Positions 55,993 to 62,399 are shown, numbered from the stretch's first letter. The stretch: 64,000 nt of DNA from Escherichia coli (GCF_013122565.1 NZ_CP053258.1); one strand, 5' to 3'. A program made the numbers and translations. Notes: generated by a model from the letters alone, not told the origin.

Positions 55993-56550
55993 ATGAATAA
56001 ATCTAATATTGTATTAACTCTTGTAGCAACCGTTGGAATTATCAGTACAGCCCACTCGGCTTCAACCGGTACAATCACATTTAATGGCGAATTGACTGCT
56101 AATACCTGTGATGCGGTTGTAGATAACCAGAATGCAGATGCAATAGTTACGTTACCTACTGTTGGTATTAATCAACTGGAAAATCAGGGTCAGACTGCTG
56201 GTCGTACAGGCTTTAATATCGCACTGACTAACTGTGCCAGTGCGCTGACAGCTGCTTCCGCTTTCTTTGCCGCTGGCCCCAGTGTGGATTTTGCAAGTGG
56301 TCACCTGAAAAACACGGATGAATCTGATGGTGGAGCAAAGCTAGTCAGCCTGCAGTTACGCGATGAGGCTCCCGGTGCAGGTAGTAAAATTATCCAAGCC
56401 GGTAATGGTAATCAGGCTACAAGTACTCAATATGTAGATGTAATTTCGGGTACTGCAAACCTGCCTTACTCAGTTGAATATTTTGCAGATGGTACGGCCA
56501 CCGCGGGTAATGTAACCAGTAATGTAGTCTATTTCATCCAGTACAAATAA
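55993..56550 (+). CDS. Fimbrial major subunit (type 1/FimA-like pilin), 185 aa
   Basis: Signal peptide MNKSNIVLTLVATVGIISTAHSA, conserved Cys pair (…NTCDAV…NCAS…), C-terminal pilin beta-strand ...NVVYFIQYK; RBS AAGGATAA. Confidence 0.85.
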   Translation: MNKSNIVLTLVATVGIISTAHSASTGTITFNGELTANTCDAVVDNQNADAIVTLPTVGINQLENQGQTAGRTGFNIALTNCASALTAASAFFAAGPSVDFASGHLKNTDESDGGAKLVSLQLRDEAPGAGSKIIQAGNGNQATSTQYVDVISGTANLPYSVEYFADGTATAGNVTSNVVYFIQYK

Positions 56551-56618
56551 TCACACAAAGATAATATATCAATAACGTATTTAAGGAGGGCCCCCCCTCC
56601 TTATTAAGAGGTCTCAAA

Positions 56619-57329
56619 ATGTTTACCAGATGTTATTTAAACCACAACCTGATGAAATCTTTACCTCTGCTATTTGTGACTTTATTCAGCCTACATTCAG
56701 AAGCCAGTATAGTTATTACGGGAACCCGGGTAATCTATCCCGCCGGGGAACATTCCGTCAGCGTGAAACTGAATAACAATGGCAAGCTTCCGGTGTTGAT
56801 TCAAAGTTGGGTGGATAATGGTGACCCAGATAAAAAACCAGATGATTCTCAGGCCCCATTTATTATTACCCCCCCGATTAACAGAGTTGATCCCGGAAAA
56901 GGACAGACCTTAAGAGTTACCTTCACTGACCTTCCATTACCCACCGATCGTGAGTCTGTCTTCTGGTTAAACGTGCTGGAAATCCCAACCAGATATGAAC
57001 CAAAATCAAATGATAATTATCTTCAGGTAGCATTTCGTACCAGGATAAAGCTTTTTTACCGACCAGAAAATTTACCAGGAAAATCTCTGGAGGCACCGAA
57101 TACACTCATCTGGAAGATTTCTAGTGGGCAACTGATGGCATCAAATAATTCGGCATGGAACGTATCTCTTTCCAGTATTTCAGTTTGCGGAAAGAAAGTC
57201 GAGGGAAAAATGGTCAGCCCAAGAGGATCTGAAATTTTCCCACTAAAAGTATCCCCGGGTATGCGGGTAAGCTTTGAAGCTGTCAATGACTACGGAGCAA
57301 TCATGAAGAAAACAGCAACCGTACAGTAA
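56619..57329 (+). CDS. Periplasmic fimbrial chaperone (PapD/FimC family), 236 aa
   Basis: Translation ...SIVITGTRVIYPAGEHSVSVKLNNNGKLPVLIQSWVDNGD...FWLNVLEIP..., typical chaperone N-domain motifs. Confidence 0.85.
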   Translation: MFTRCYLNHNLMKSLPLLFVTLFSLHSEASIVITGTRVIYPAGEHSVSVKLNNNGKLPVLIQSWVDNGDPDKKPDDSQAPFIITPPINRVDPGKGQTLRVTFTDLPLPTDRESVFWLNVLEIPTRYEPKSNDNYLQVAFRTRIKLFYRPENLPGKSLEAPNTLIWKISSGQLMASNNSAWNVSLSSISVCGKKVEGKMVSPRGSEIFPLKVSPGMRVSFEAVNDYGAIMKKTATVQ

Positions 57330-57353
57330 TAAATATACATAAAGGTTAATACC

Positions 57354-59957: not shown

Positions 59958-60041
59958 TCTATTAAAGAAAGTTTTCTATCAATACGGGTAATAAATATCT
60001 CTTTTTCATTACCCGTCCTTTTTACACAAAGGGATTCCCCC

Positions 60042-61190
60042 ATGCAAAATTTAATTCATAGAAATATTTTTTTGGTATTAATATTTATCACCGTCATAAT
60101 TTTTGCCTATTCAGGAAAAAGTATTGCGGCAAGATGTAAGTTCCAGATAGATGGTTCAAGTCCGTCAAAAAAATACATATTACCATTCTCAGCCCGAGAT
60201 ATCACAGCCGGAGCCGACATCAATACCGGTACGGTTCTCTCAACCGTCAGATATAATAAACCTATTCAAATACAGTGTGAGCCAACATCCGGCGCACCAT
60301 CTGATGAAGAAATAACAATTAAGTACTATCTTCAGGTGTTGACTACCCCTTACCCGTCATCAGGAATGATTGCTGCCAATGGATTACCAGTATATAACAC
60401 ACCGATTTCAGGAATTGGATTTGCTCTCGACTCAGCAAATCCTGTAGCTACACCAACATATCCTGCATTAATGGACGTACAGACAATTGCGGCTAACATA
60501 TCTGATGTCAGGTATATCTTTGGTACCAACGCCCTATTAATGCGGTTATATAAAACGGGGGCACCAGGGAGTGGAGCTATAAATGGGGAAGATTTACCCA
60601 CTTTAAAAACATTTATTACAACCGAATCGAATTATGATCCAGTCCCTAAGCAAGAGGATATGGCCTTCATTTCATTTTCAGGTGTTATGAACGTGGTCTC
60701 CTATACTTGCAGAACACCAGATGTTGTAGTTTCATTAGGCGAGCATGAGACCAATATATTTACAACCCCAGGAACTTCGACTCAATGGGTTGATTCATCT
60801 ATCCAGTTACTTGATTGCCCTACTAATTATTTTGGTTATACTGATAAGGGTACTTTTATCTCTGACTCAGGTGTAATTACAGGCACCCCTCCATTAACAC
60901 CGAACAAATATACTATTGAATTATCACCTAAATACGGAGTTAAAGATGCTGCTACAGGTATAATTAATATTAACAGTGGCACAGGCATGGCATCGGGAGT
61001 CGGAATTCAGGTAGCCTCAGGCAATAGTATAACAAACACACCGGCCAAATTTAATATCGCAACTGAGATGACCCCGGAGTCTAATACTTCTCAAAAAATT
61101 CCATTGGTTGCACGATTGATACAAACAGACACTAACGTTACACCAGGGAAAATAGAGTCAGTTATAACTTTTACAATTAATTATTATTAA
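60042..61190 (+). CDS. Fimbrial tip adhesin-like subunit (two-domain: N-terminal lectin-like + C-terminal pilin domain), 382 aa
   Basis: Signal/anchor MQNLIHRNIFLVLIFITVIIFAYSG; long N-terminal domain; C-terminal pilin-like ending ...KIESVITFTINYY; located after usher. Confidence 0.7.
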   Translation: MQNLIHRNIFLVLIFITVIIFAYSGKSIAARCKFQIDGSSPSKKYILPFSARDITAGADINTGTVLSTVRYNKPIQIQCEPTSGAPSDEEITIKYYLQVLTTPYPSSGMIAANGLPVYNTPISGIGFALDSANPVATPTYPALMDVQTIAANISDVRYIFGTNALLMRLYKTGAPGSGAINGEDLPTLKTFITTESNYDPVPKQEDMAFISFSGVMNVVSYTCRTPDVVVSLGEHETNIFTTPGTSTQWVDSSIQLLDCPTNYFGYTDKGTFISDSGVITGTPPLTPNKYTIELSPKYGVKDAATGIININSGTGMASGVGIQVASGNSITNTPAKFNIATEMTPESNTSQKIPLVARLIQTDTNVTPGKIESVITFTINYY

Positions 61191-61577
61191 CACAACTGTT
61201 TCATGATGGGAGGTGGTAAATATGAACCATTTCAAATATAAAAGAGTGTCAGCTCTAACATAGATGCGCGATATATGTTTAGGAACAGCACCACATAAAT
61301 TTTTATGCAATGCAGACATTGCCCCACTTTATCGTCTGTTACGTTGGCAAATTTTTATAGGAATTGTTTCGGTTATGCTGCGTATTATCTTGTACAAAAA
61401 ATCTCACACTGGCAATGCCATGTCTTTTCTAGCGGGGATTTCCTCGTGGTGATTTAGGATTTGCTTTATCAGGATTTTTTACAAGGCATTTCATTACCAA
61501 CAGGCCACAAAATACAATACAAATAACAAATTGTGAATATAAAGTATTAAAGAAGCATCTATTCCCAAGGAGATAAA

Positions 61578-62399
61578 ATGTCACTCATTTGTTCTATTAA
61601 ATTCATTCAACATGAATTTAATGCATATATTTTAGATAACAACTACGCCTTCTCTGACGGTGAGGTTCTGATGGTAGATAGTGCTGTTAATTTATATTTT
61701 AAACCTTATGAACGATATTTCAAAGAAATCAAACTCAATGAAAAAATCATCAAAAGATACCTACAATACACTAACATTCAGATAGAGACAATGTCTGCTC
61801 CTACAAAGTTTTTACGTGTTTCTAATGTACCGACTGGATTGCTTAATGAAATGATTATTTATCTCAACTCGGAAGAAAATAATCATCATGATTTCTCTGA
61901 AGTTTTGCTTTTATCTTGCCTATCTATTTTTTCCGAATGCAAAGGTTTCATTACATTGCTTAATAACGGTGTATTATCCGTTTCCGGAAAAGTGAGGAAC
62001 ATTGTCAATATGAAGTTATCCCATTCATGGAAACTAAAAGACATTTGTGACTGCCTGTGCATGAGTGAAAGCTTGCTGAAGAAAAAACTAAAACAAGAGC
62101 AAACAACATTCTCACAGATTCTTTTAGATGCCAGAATGCAGCACGCTAATAAATTGATGCGGATAGAAGGCTCAGTCAATAAAATTGCCGAACAATGTGG
62201 TTATGCCAGTACATCTTATTTTATTTATACTTTCCGAAATTATTTCGGCAACAGTCCAAAGAGATTTTCTAAGGAAAAAGGTATCCACCCGCATAGCCAT
62301 CTTGCAGACTTCAGCGGTATTCTGCAGACGGATGCGAACGCTGGGTTCATGCCCGCAACAAGAACCATGGTGTGCATGTCCGCACGCCGTCGGCGCTGA
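61578..62399 (+). CDS. AraC-family regulator of the Rns/CfaD/AggR fimbrial-activator type; 3' end apparently fused to IS66-derived sequence
   Basis: C-terminal dual HTH ...LSHSWKLKDICDCLCMSESLLKKKLKQEQTTFSQILLDARMQHANKLMRIEGSVNKIAEQCGYASTSYFIYTFRNYFGNSPKRF... resembles Rns; tail ...HLADFSGILQTDANAGFMPATR... resembles IS66 TnpC; RBS AAGGAG. Confidence 0.75.
   Translation: MSLICSIKFIQHEFNAYILDNNYAFSDGEVLMVDSAVNLYFKPYERYFKEIKLNEKIIKRYLQYTNIQIETMSAPTKFLRVSNVPTGLLNEMIIYLNSEENNHHDFSEVLLLSCLSIFSECKGFITLLNNGVLSVSGKVRNIVNMKLSHSWKLKDICDCLCMSESLLKKKLKQEQTTFSQILLDARMQHANKLMRIEGSVNKIAEQCGYASTSYFIYTFRNYFGNSPKRFSKEKGIHPHSHLADFSGILQTDANAGFMPATRTMVCMSARRRR

Follow-up and report, generated by a model that had tools for sequence, protein, structure and literature searches.

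An intact chaperone-usher operon in a genomic island at serX

The window analysed here is a 64,000-nucleotide stretch of an Escherichia coli genome (GCF_013122565.1, NZ_CP053258.1). Its right part carries an AT-rich fimbrial operon of the chaperone-usher type, followed by an open reading frame (ORF) for an AraC-family protein. An earlier note, made from the sequence alone, had described four co-directional fimbrial genes and taken the AraC-family ORF for an Rns/CfaD/AggR-type activator on which they depend. All five genes are indeed intact and lie on the + strand, in an island that starts at a tRNA gene:

42956-43043: tRNA-Ser(GGA) gene (serX), left end of the genomic island
55993-56550, + strand: major fimbrial subunit (pilin), 185 aa; ORF with FimA/Fimbrial Pfam matches
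56619-57329, + strand: PapD-like periplasmic chaperone, 236 aa as called; PapD_N and PapD_C, NCBIfam PRK09926
57354-59957, + strand: outer-membrane usher, 867 aa; PapC_N, Usher and PapC_C, NCBIfam PRK09828
60042-61190, + strand: two-domain tip adhesin, 382 aa; signal peptide, N-terminal domain at about residues 30-205, C-terminal pilin domain at about 206-382
61578-62399, + strand: ydeO-like AraC-family ORF, 273 aa; codons 1 to ~236 a YdeO xenologue, last ~37 codons IS66 read-through

The fimbrial families named in that note were confirmed with NCBIfam and Pfam, where the PapD_N/PapD_C, PapC_N/Usher/PapC_C and FimA/Fimbrial matches are precomputed Pfam results for the same genes in near-identical island copies. 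Gene lengths agree with those of relatives, so neither the chaperone, the usher nor the subunit genes are frameshifted. NCBIfam fimbrial-chaperone models match the chaperone down to E 1e-70, and usher models match the usher down to E 2e-194. The chaperone sequence shows the conserved Arg8 (mature numbering) and the lysine motif RIKLFYRP; its true start is likely Met12 at 56652, where the signal peptide is more typical. A ribosome-binding site, AAGGA, stands 8 nucleotides before the pilin ATG. With a two-domain chaperone, a full-length usher, a pilin and an adhesin that ends in a pilin domain, the cluster has the make-up of a classical chaperone-usher operon.

Positions 1-50000 of the window are ~98-99% identical to thousands of E. 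coli genomes (flg, mdtH, mdoGH and neighbours), and this core part has a G+C content (GC) of 0.50. A CP4-type genomic island begins directly after serX and extends beyond the window end, and within it the operon sits in an AT-rich cargo block of ~10.5 kb (~51750 to ~62280). The GC is 0.39-0.45 in the four fimbrial genes, 0.31 in the 1.2 kb upstream of the pilin gene and 0.33 in the AraC-family gene, which bears out the AT-richness described before. In the near-identical strain PapRG-06-5 (99.5% over 55000-63000), the island also holds a CbtA/YeeU toxin-antitoxin system, an antirestriction gene, DUF932, YfjI, a GTPase, many insertion sequence (IS) fragments and an integrase remnant, the last lying ~9 kb past the window end. 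The block was found in 3 of 5426 complete E. coli genomes, two from baboon isolates and one from a human isolate. A plasmid origin was rejected: the whole block is on no PLSDB plasmid, where matches are limited to its ydeO and IS66 pieces. A literature search by protein accession returned no papers on these proteins.

Eleven island copies were examined for ORF intactness, and the usher, the adhesin and the ydeO-like ORF are intact in all of them. In L007 and L009 (loci are cited by L numbers), nucleotide identity to the window is 95.2% for the pilin gene, 96.1% for the chaperone, 98.6% for the usher and 99.8% for the adhesin. This gradient along the operon points to a tract of recombination, or to antigenic diversification, with the pilin gene at the centre.

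The usher is a lineage of its own, tentatively on the gamma-4 side

The usher is 37% identical to HtrE and 27-33% identical to FimD, SfmD, YraJ, the F9 usher, YehB and YbgQ. A neighbour-joining (NJ) tree of 13 taxa was built, with seven E. coli ushers as its only references. Together with its relatives from metagenomes and Serratia, the usher formed a separate clade with 100% bootstrap support, and this clade fell on the HtrE/YehB side of the tree, apart from FimD, SfmD, F9, YraJ and YbgQ, with 84% support. The literature places Yad/Sta, Yeh/Stc, Stk and Mrk in gamma-4 (PMC3373541, PMC7886704, PMC3559732). The 13-taxon tree suggests a gamma-4-like usher that represents its own lineage. The closest ushers, 62-68% identical, were found only in metagenome or SRA assemblies; in named genomes (Serratia fonticola and other Enterobacterales), usher identity reaches at most ~53%. 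The pilin shares 56-63% identity with those of L013, L014 and L017, and its top NCBIfam model is StkA, with a score far under the cut-off of that model; the chaperone is 62% identical to that of L013. The order pilin, chaperone, usher, adhesin is kept in L013, L014, L017, L019-L024, L030 and L034.

The Yad fimbriae of E. coli (yadN-yadV-htrE-yadMLKC) and the Sta fimbriae of Salmonella resemble the window cluster in several respects. The top usher and chaperone models have HtrE and YadV lengths, the order of pilin, chaperone, usher and long two-domain adhesin is the same, and the ushers lie on the same side of the tree. Identity to Yad, however, is only 37% for the usher, 42% for the chaperone (YadV) and 27% for the pilin. 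The window cluster lies in the serX island and not at the core yad locus, it has no yadK/L/M-type minor subunit genes, and BLASTP found no similarity between its adhesin and YadC. We rejected a Yad orthologue on the identities of 37-42%, the locus and the missing minor subunits, together with equivalog scores below cut-off for both the usher (648 bits against PRK09828, an HtrE-length model with a cut-off of 830) and the chaperone (238 bits against PRK09926, a YadV-length model with a cut-off of 285).

The adhesin carries an MrkD/Abp1D-type domain

The N-terminal domain of the adhesin, for which the earlier note could name no match, is an MrkD/Abp1D-type receptor-binding domain by sequence profile and fold. 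A whole-family profile matched 3u4k (E 8.5e-11) and 8df0 (E 7e-10) in the PDB, and with a profile of the N-terminal domain only, PDB matches were confined to Abp1D, MrkD and Abp2D. Identity to Klebsiella MrkD and Acinetobacter Abp1D/Abp2D (PDB 3U4K, 8DF0, 8DEZ) is ~21%. Binding by these adhesins requires an arginine, R105 in MrkD and R86 in Abp1D/2D (PMC9942807), whereas the corresponding residue of the window adhesin is Ser131 (GIGFALDS versus GIGIRLYR). Because this essential arginine is replaced, the ligand is probably different from the collagen and fibrinogen bound by MrkD and Abp.

The adhesin belongs to a large family of 562 representatives (50% clustering, E <= 1e-3) that align over their full length at ~30-38% identity. 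Its own cluster is confined to E. coli and comprises 34 member sequences on 47 contigs in 93 index blocks. Compared with the N-terminal domains encoded in the closest operons, that of the window adhesin reaches just 27-29% identity, while the ushers of the same operons are 62-67% identical. Kinship to the E. coli adhesins YadC, YehA, YraK, YbgO, FimH and FmlH was considered and rejected, BLASTP having returned nothing at E <= 0.01 for any of them. Adhesin regions vary among the related operons. In Serratia fonticola (L014 8001-12586, CP013913.1), three adhesin paralogues of 385, 394 and 389 aa follow the usher, each ~33% identical to the window adhesin, and a GerE-type regulator gene stands between the second and the third; L020 has an extra PapD_N-only chaperone-like gene (8534-9229) between the usher and adhesin genes.

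The AraC-family ORF derives from ydeO

Four unrelated gene fragments, from glpT, safA, ydeO and IS66, stand in a row behind the adhesin gene. Around the AraC-family ORF (hereafter ydeO'), these are:

61285-61486, + strand: frameshifted 5' fragment of a glpT-like MFS transporter gene (about codons 8-71); blastn, three-frame translation
61487-61577, + strand: last ~10 safA codons, then the safA-ydeO spacer, which holds the ydeO ribosome-binding site; blastn against the native locus (L002)
62241-62608, + strand: piece from the middle of a second, different IS66-family transposase gene (about residues 285-423); tblastn, annotation of PapRG-06-5 by the Prokaryotic Genome Annotation Pipeline (PGAP)

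Against the NCBIfam YdeO equivalog, ydeO' scores 442.5 bits (cut-off 348) over profile positions 1-240 of 253, and it shares 78% of amino acids and 82% of nucleotides with native E. coli ydeO. Window positions 61487-62275 are homologous to the native safA-ydeO locus, and this homology ends at about YdeO codon 236. At the junction with IS66 (~62276), the last ~17 codons of YdeO give way to ~37 foreign ones. The safA remnant reads FTRHFITN and was aligned with THFIINS of SafA. Over 61329-61464, the glpT fragment is 71% identical to E. coli glpT by blastn; it holds two frameshifts and one stop, and its corrected peptide matches GlpT equivalog models at E 5e-23 and 8e-20. The possibility that this fragment is the native flank of the donor operon was rejected, as glpT is absent beside all related operons.

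Between ydeO' and native ydeO, the synonymous divergence (dS) is 0.47 and the ratio of nonsynonymous to synonymous divergence (dN/dS) is 0.24. This divergence points to a donor outside E. coli, and a search of a 5.8-billion-protein collection found no closer YdeO relative. The carrying genomes have two ydeO-matching places per record, the second of which is taken to be the native gene. Native YdeO is part of the EvgA-YdeO-GadE acid-resistance cascade, and its gene depends on the safA promoter for transcription (PMC5706723). This promoter is missing at ydeO', where only ~10 safA codons are left and there is no ydeP. Over residues 1-236 and in the homologous intergenic region upstream, ydeO' thus resembles E. 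coli YdeO at the equivalog level; it differs in being a second, diverged copy that lacks safA and its promoter, is not full length in a safA-ydeO operon and ends in an IS66 tail.

One alternative is that ydeO' encodes a functional second YdeO that modulates the EvgA-YdeO-GadE circuit independently of the fimbriae. The dN/dS value, the complete DNA-binding domain and the retained native ribosome-binding site and intergenic region would all fit such a role, as would the known up-regulation of GadE by YdeO (PMC5706723). The fusion ORF is also conserved in every copy examined, with an identical junction in 11 of 11. Set against this are the missing safA promoter, the exchange of the C-terminal 17 residues for 37 foreign ones, the calling of ydeO' as a pseudogene by PGAP, and the consideration that the purifying signal may largely stem from before the transfer. 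We therefore regard a functional second YdeO as unlikely.

As the earlier note had read it, the dual AraC helix-turn-helix (HTH) region of ydeO' is complete, with HTH_18 at residues 156-232 (E 2.4e-15). The close resemblance to Rns/CfaD that it saw there proved to hold at the subfamily level only. The closest solved structure is that of GadX (E 7e-25), followed by those of CsvR and Rns (~1e-17), and no Rns-type model is among the best 25 NCBIfam matches. A dedicated Rns/CfaD/AggR-type activator that relieves H-NS silencing would agree with membership of the AraC family, the two HTH motifs, the lack of an obvious ligand domain and the remote Rns/CsvR similarity, which reaches into the N-terminal domain. 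The ORF is moreover co-directional with the operon, is uninterrupted in all 11 copies and has no predicted terminator between it and the adhesin gene. Yet ydeO' is far closer to YdeO, at equivalog level, and to GadX than to any Rns-type protein, and it lies next to debris of safA and glpT, with its 3' end cut off by IS66. No AraC gene stands beside the operon at any of the related loci listed above, so that the linkage is not conserved. Furthermore, the published Rns-dependent fimbriae of enterotoxigenic E. coli are of the alpha clade (PMC9820224), whereas the window usher lies on the gamma-4 side. Taken together, these data make an Rns-type activator very improbable.

Since native ydeO lies downstream of the F9 operon, an F9/Fml origin of the fimbrial genes was also considered. 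It was rejected at 33% identity for the usher, 37% for the chaperone and 28% for the pilin, and the F9 usher is placed on the opposite side of the usher tree from the window usher.

A divergent ToxR-like pair is the candidate fimbrial regulator

The regulators that are conserved beside this operon family lie upstream, outside the stretch to which the earlier note had applied its activator-dependent logic. In the window they are divergent from the fimbrial operon:

52168-52656, - strand: partner protein, 162 aa; single-pass membrane protein with a predicted VtrC/ToxS-like periplasmic beta-barrel
52649-53521, - strand: ToxR-like transmembrane transcription regulator, 290 aa

The regulator has a cytoplasmic winged HTH, one transmembrane (TM) segment (residues 176-194) and a periplasmic domain in which Cys213, Cys243 and Cys270 are conserved. 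Pfam Trans_reg_C matches residues 35-109 (E 1.4e-11), and the HTH is closest to the DNA-binding domain of ToxR (E 8e-9), then to that of CadC (E 5e-6). The partner, whose start overlaps the regulator stop by 8 nucleotides, has an N-terminal TM anchor and two conserved cysteines, and matched nothing in Pfam or NCBIfam. An N-terminal CadC/ToxR-type HTH, a single TM segment and conserved periplasmic cysteines, with an adjacent, overlapping gene for a TM-anchored lipocalin-like partner, are the features of co-component cassettes, a class defined by Kinch et al. (PMC9214523) that includes PsaE/PsaF.

A membrane-bound winged-HTH regulator with an overlapping gene for a TM-anchored barrel partner is common to the window pair and to ToxR/ToxS, VtrA/VtrC, TcpP/TcpH, PsaE/PsaF and YqeI/YqeJ (PMC9214523). 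PsaE/PsaF control the pH6-antigen fimbriae of Yersinia (PMC6657601, PMC9820224) and likewise adjoin a chaperone-usher operon (PMC6657601); the window pair is divergent, whereas descriptions of the psa locus put psaEF ahead of psaABC (PMC9820224). Close paralogy to E. coli YqeI/YqeJ was rejected, as similarity is confined to the HTH (30% to YqeI over 109 residues); BLASTP found no match between the partner and YqeJ. In E. coli K-12 (L054 3537-5787, yqeH-yqeI-yqeJ), the LuxR-family gene yqeH precedes the pair, which echoes the layout of small regulator plus cassette found next to these fimbrial operons.

An upstream divergent gene for a Trans_reg_C protein of ~270-300 aa recurs in the related operons. 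It is followed by an overlapping gene of ~162-166 aa in L020/L021 and L023/L024. Between the regulator pair and the pilin gene, L023/L024 carry an EAL-domain gene and a ~195-aa gene; between regulator and pilin gene, L013, L019 and L020 have only one gene, of ~200-230 aa. The window layout matches that of these operons. Aligned over its full length, the window regulator shares 37-42% identity with its counterparts at the same position in L020 and L023, and the partner shares 30-36% with the partners there; S. fonticola has a 27%-identical regulator at the same place. Among complete E. coli genomes, the regulator and partner genes occur only in the three strains with the fimbrial genes. In representative genomes, a chaperone-usher operon lies within 10 kb at 11 of 22 enterobacterial or related regulator-homologue loci, mostly divergent and adjacent, and the partner family directly follows the regulator homologue in at least 10 loci (jackhmmer over the ORFs of fetched loci). 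From the co-component features and this recurrent adjacency to chaperone-usher operons, we infer that the ToxR-like pair, and not the AraC gene, would be the cognate fimbrial regulator.

Small genes are also found on the other side of some related operons. Directly after the adhesin gene, L023 (9413-9616) and L024 (8390-8593) carry a gene of the Hha family, which hints at H-NS/Hha-type silencing in this operon family. A PerC-like gene occupies the equivalent position in L019.

The region between regulator and pilin gene is eroded

The 1.2 kb upstream of the pilin gene had been called very AT-rich and non-coding. The base composition stands as described; the DNA itself is not simply non-coding, and holds remnants of two genes beyond a decayed IS element:

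53810-54766, + strand: IS66-family remnant, internally deleted (orfA, tnpB and C-terminal transposase pieces); tblastn with the intact L009 IS66, PGAP annotation of PapRG-06-5
55067-55651, + strand: EAL-domain (cyclic di-GMP phosphodiesterase-type) pseudogene remnant; includes a 104-aa ORF called 'hypothetical protein' by PGAP in the near-identical strain
55770-55922, + strand: C-terminal remnant, interrupted by one in-frame stop, of a ~200-aa gene conserved ahead of the pilin gene in related operons

The IS66 remnant lies between the regulator gene and the EAL remnant, and the local GC rises there to 0.47-0.51. Positions 55247-55651 align in one frame to residues 18-159 of the L023 EAL protein (35% identity, tblastn E 1e-19), which itself matches EAL phosphodiesterase models; the remnant has two in-frame stops and lacks its 3' half. 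The remnant of the ~200-aa gene was found by tblastn with the 223-aa protein of L013 (E 5e-6) and the 195-aa protein of L023 (E 4e-5). Similarity of this gene to GerE/LuxR-type regulators is weak, judging by an N-terminal match of the L013 protein to the GerE-domain protein of the S. fonticola locus (E 1e-4). With the EAL and ~200-aa genes decayed and an IS66 remnant lying beside them, the native regulatory region is eroded. The two IS66 fragments of the window were considered as halves of one element or as a composite transposon on both sides of the block. This was rejected, and they are assigned to different elements, because the transposase parts that they cover overlap (residues 303-508 and 285-423), while their identities to a reference differ widely; the intact IS66 in L009 is a third, different element.

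Further control elements were sought in the same region. No convincing inverted repeats were found upstream of the pilin gene, and an invertible promoter or phase switch was rejected on this ground; a structured RNA leader was rejected because an Rfam scan of 51500-63000 gave nothing at E <= 0.1. A weak -35/-10-like site lies at 55933-55962. Promoter and terminator scans returned counts below shuffled expectation and are thus uninformative; they showed no terminator-like site after the adhesin gene. From base composition, H-NS silencing is plausible.

This erosion bears on the possibility that the operon is cryptic and decaying, a relic that stays silent in every condition and persists only by hitch-hiking on the island. 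Besides the pseudogenised regulatory genes and the IS66 remnant, some strains show decay of the cargo itself: an IS3 element lies inside the pilin gene in L004 and L010, and frameshifts affect the chaperone in L004 and the ToxR-like regulator in L006 and L010. The block is also very rare, and many E. coli chaperone-usher operons have been described as cryptic (PMC3559732). The window, however, has undamaged versions of the four structural genes and of both genes of the co-component pair, and no copy among the 11 has lost the usher or the adhesin. A wholly silent relic is in our view somewhat unlikely.

Discussion

We consider it probable that the window carries a horizontally acquired, gamma-4-side fimbrial cargo at serX, with a ToxR/ToxS-like pair as its native control and a stray ydeO fragment as its AraC gene. 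By analogy with the mechanism of the family, the PapD-like chaperone would capture subunits in the periplasm, and the usher would polymerise the 185-aa pilin by donor-strand exchange under a single two-domain adhesin, whose MrkD/Abp1D-type N-terminal domain would bind a host or surface ligand. Native control would lie with the divergent ToxR/ToxS- or VtrA/VtrC-type pair, a winged-HTH regulator with a lipocalin-like partner. Both genes of the pair are intact in the window. With the EAL and ~200-aa genes decayed and the IS66 remnant in the divergent promoter region, fimbrial regulation is probably altered or partly lost because of these changes. The safA'-ydeO' fragment, which is cut at both ends, would have arrived with the glpT fragment through illegitimate recombination or IS activity. 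On this account, ydeO' would stand outside the fimbrial system, and may still encode a DNA-binding YdeO-like protein without its native EvgA-dependent promoter.

Several points weigh against this reading. The gamma-4 placement comes from a 13-taxon NJ tree (84% bootstrap) and not from a full reference set. The link between regulator and target rests on conserved synteny and fold prediction, and for the partner the fold match is at 7% sequence identity, with a model built from 17 sequences. The closest regulator homologue in a named genome (44%), in Citrobacter amalonaticus (L025 10001-18655), has no chaperone-usher genes within 10 kb. The pairing of regulator and chaperone-usher operon is thus frequent and not obligatory. 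That locus holds two cassettes of regulator and partner, with EAL and ~200-aa genes beside the second. Finally, the uninterrupted ydeO'-IS66 ORF in 11 of 11 copies and the lack of a terminator-like site after the adhesin gene leave room for co-transcription with the operon and for some YdeO' function.

Every component of the locus is of a known kind (chaperone-usher, MrkD-type adhesin, co-component, YdeO, IS66); what is new is the lineage and the recurrent pairing of co-component and chaperone-usher genes. This pairing is apparently undiscussed in the main text of PMC9214523, where 'usher' and 'pili' are absent and 'pilus' occurs once. A broader picture can be put forward tentatively, as a possibility worth holding in mind though short of an even chance. 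Gamma-4 fimbriae with MrkD-type adhesins, widespread in Serratia, Yersinia, Enterobacter and gut or environmental enterobacteria, might be run by a ToxRS/VtrAC-type sensor, possibly responsive to bile or lipids, and be wired together with an EAL gene and a small LuxR-like protein. In E. coli, the island copy might then represent a 'regulatory knock-down' made by nature, and its chance fusion to a second YdeO, possibly an active one, could tie fimbrial transcription to acid resistance.

The locus adds a rare adhesin, from baboon and human isolates, to the accessory fimbriome of E. coli. It is also a cautionary case, in which an Rns-looking AraC gene beside a fimbrial operon is recombination debris from an acid-resistance locus. 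Co-component cassettes are recently defined, fast-evolving virulence regulators with few known targets, and their recurrent divergent pairing with chaperone-usher operons offers testable regulator-target pairs beyond PsaEF.

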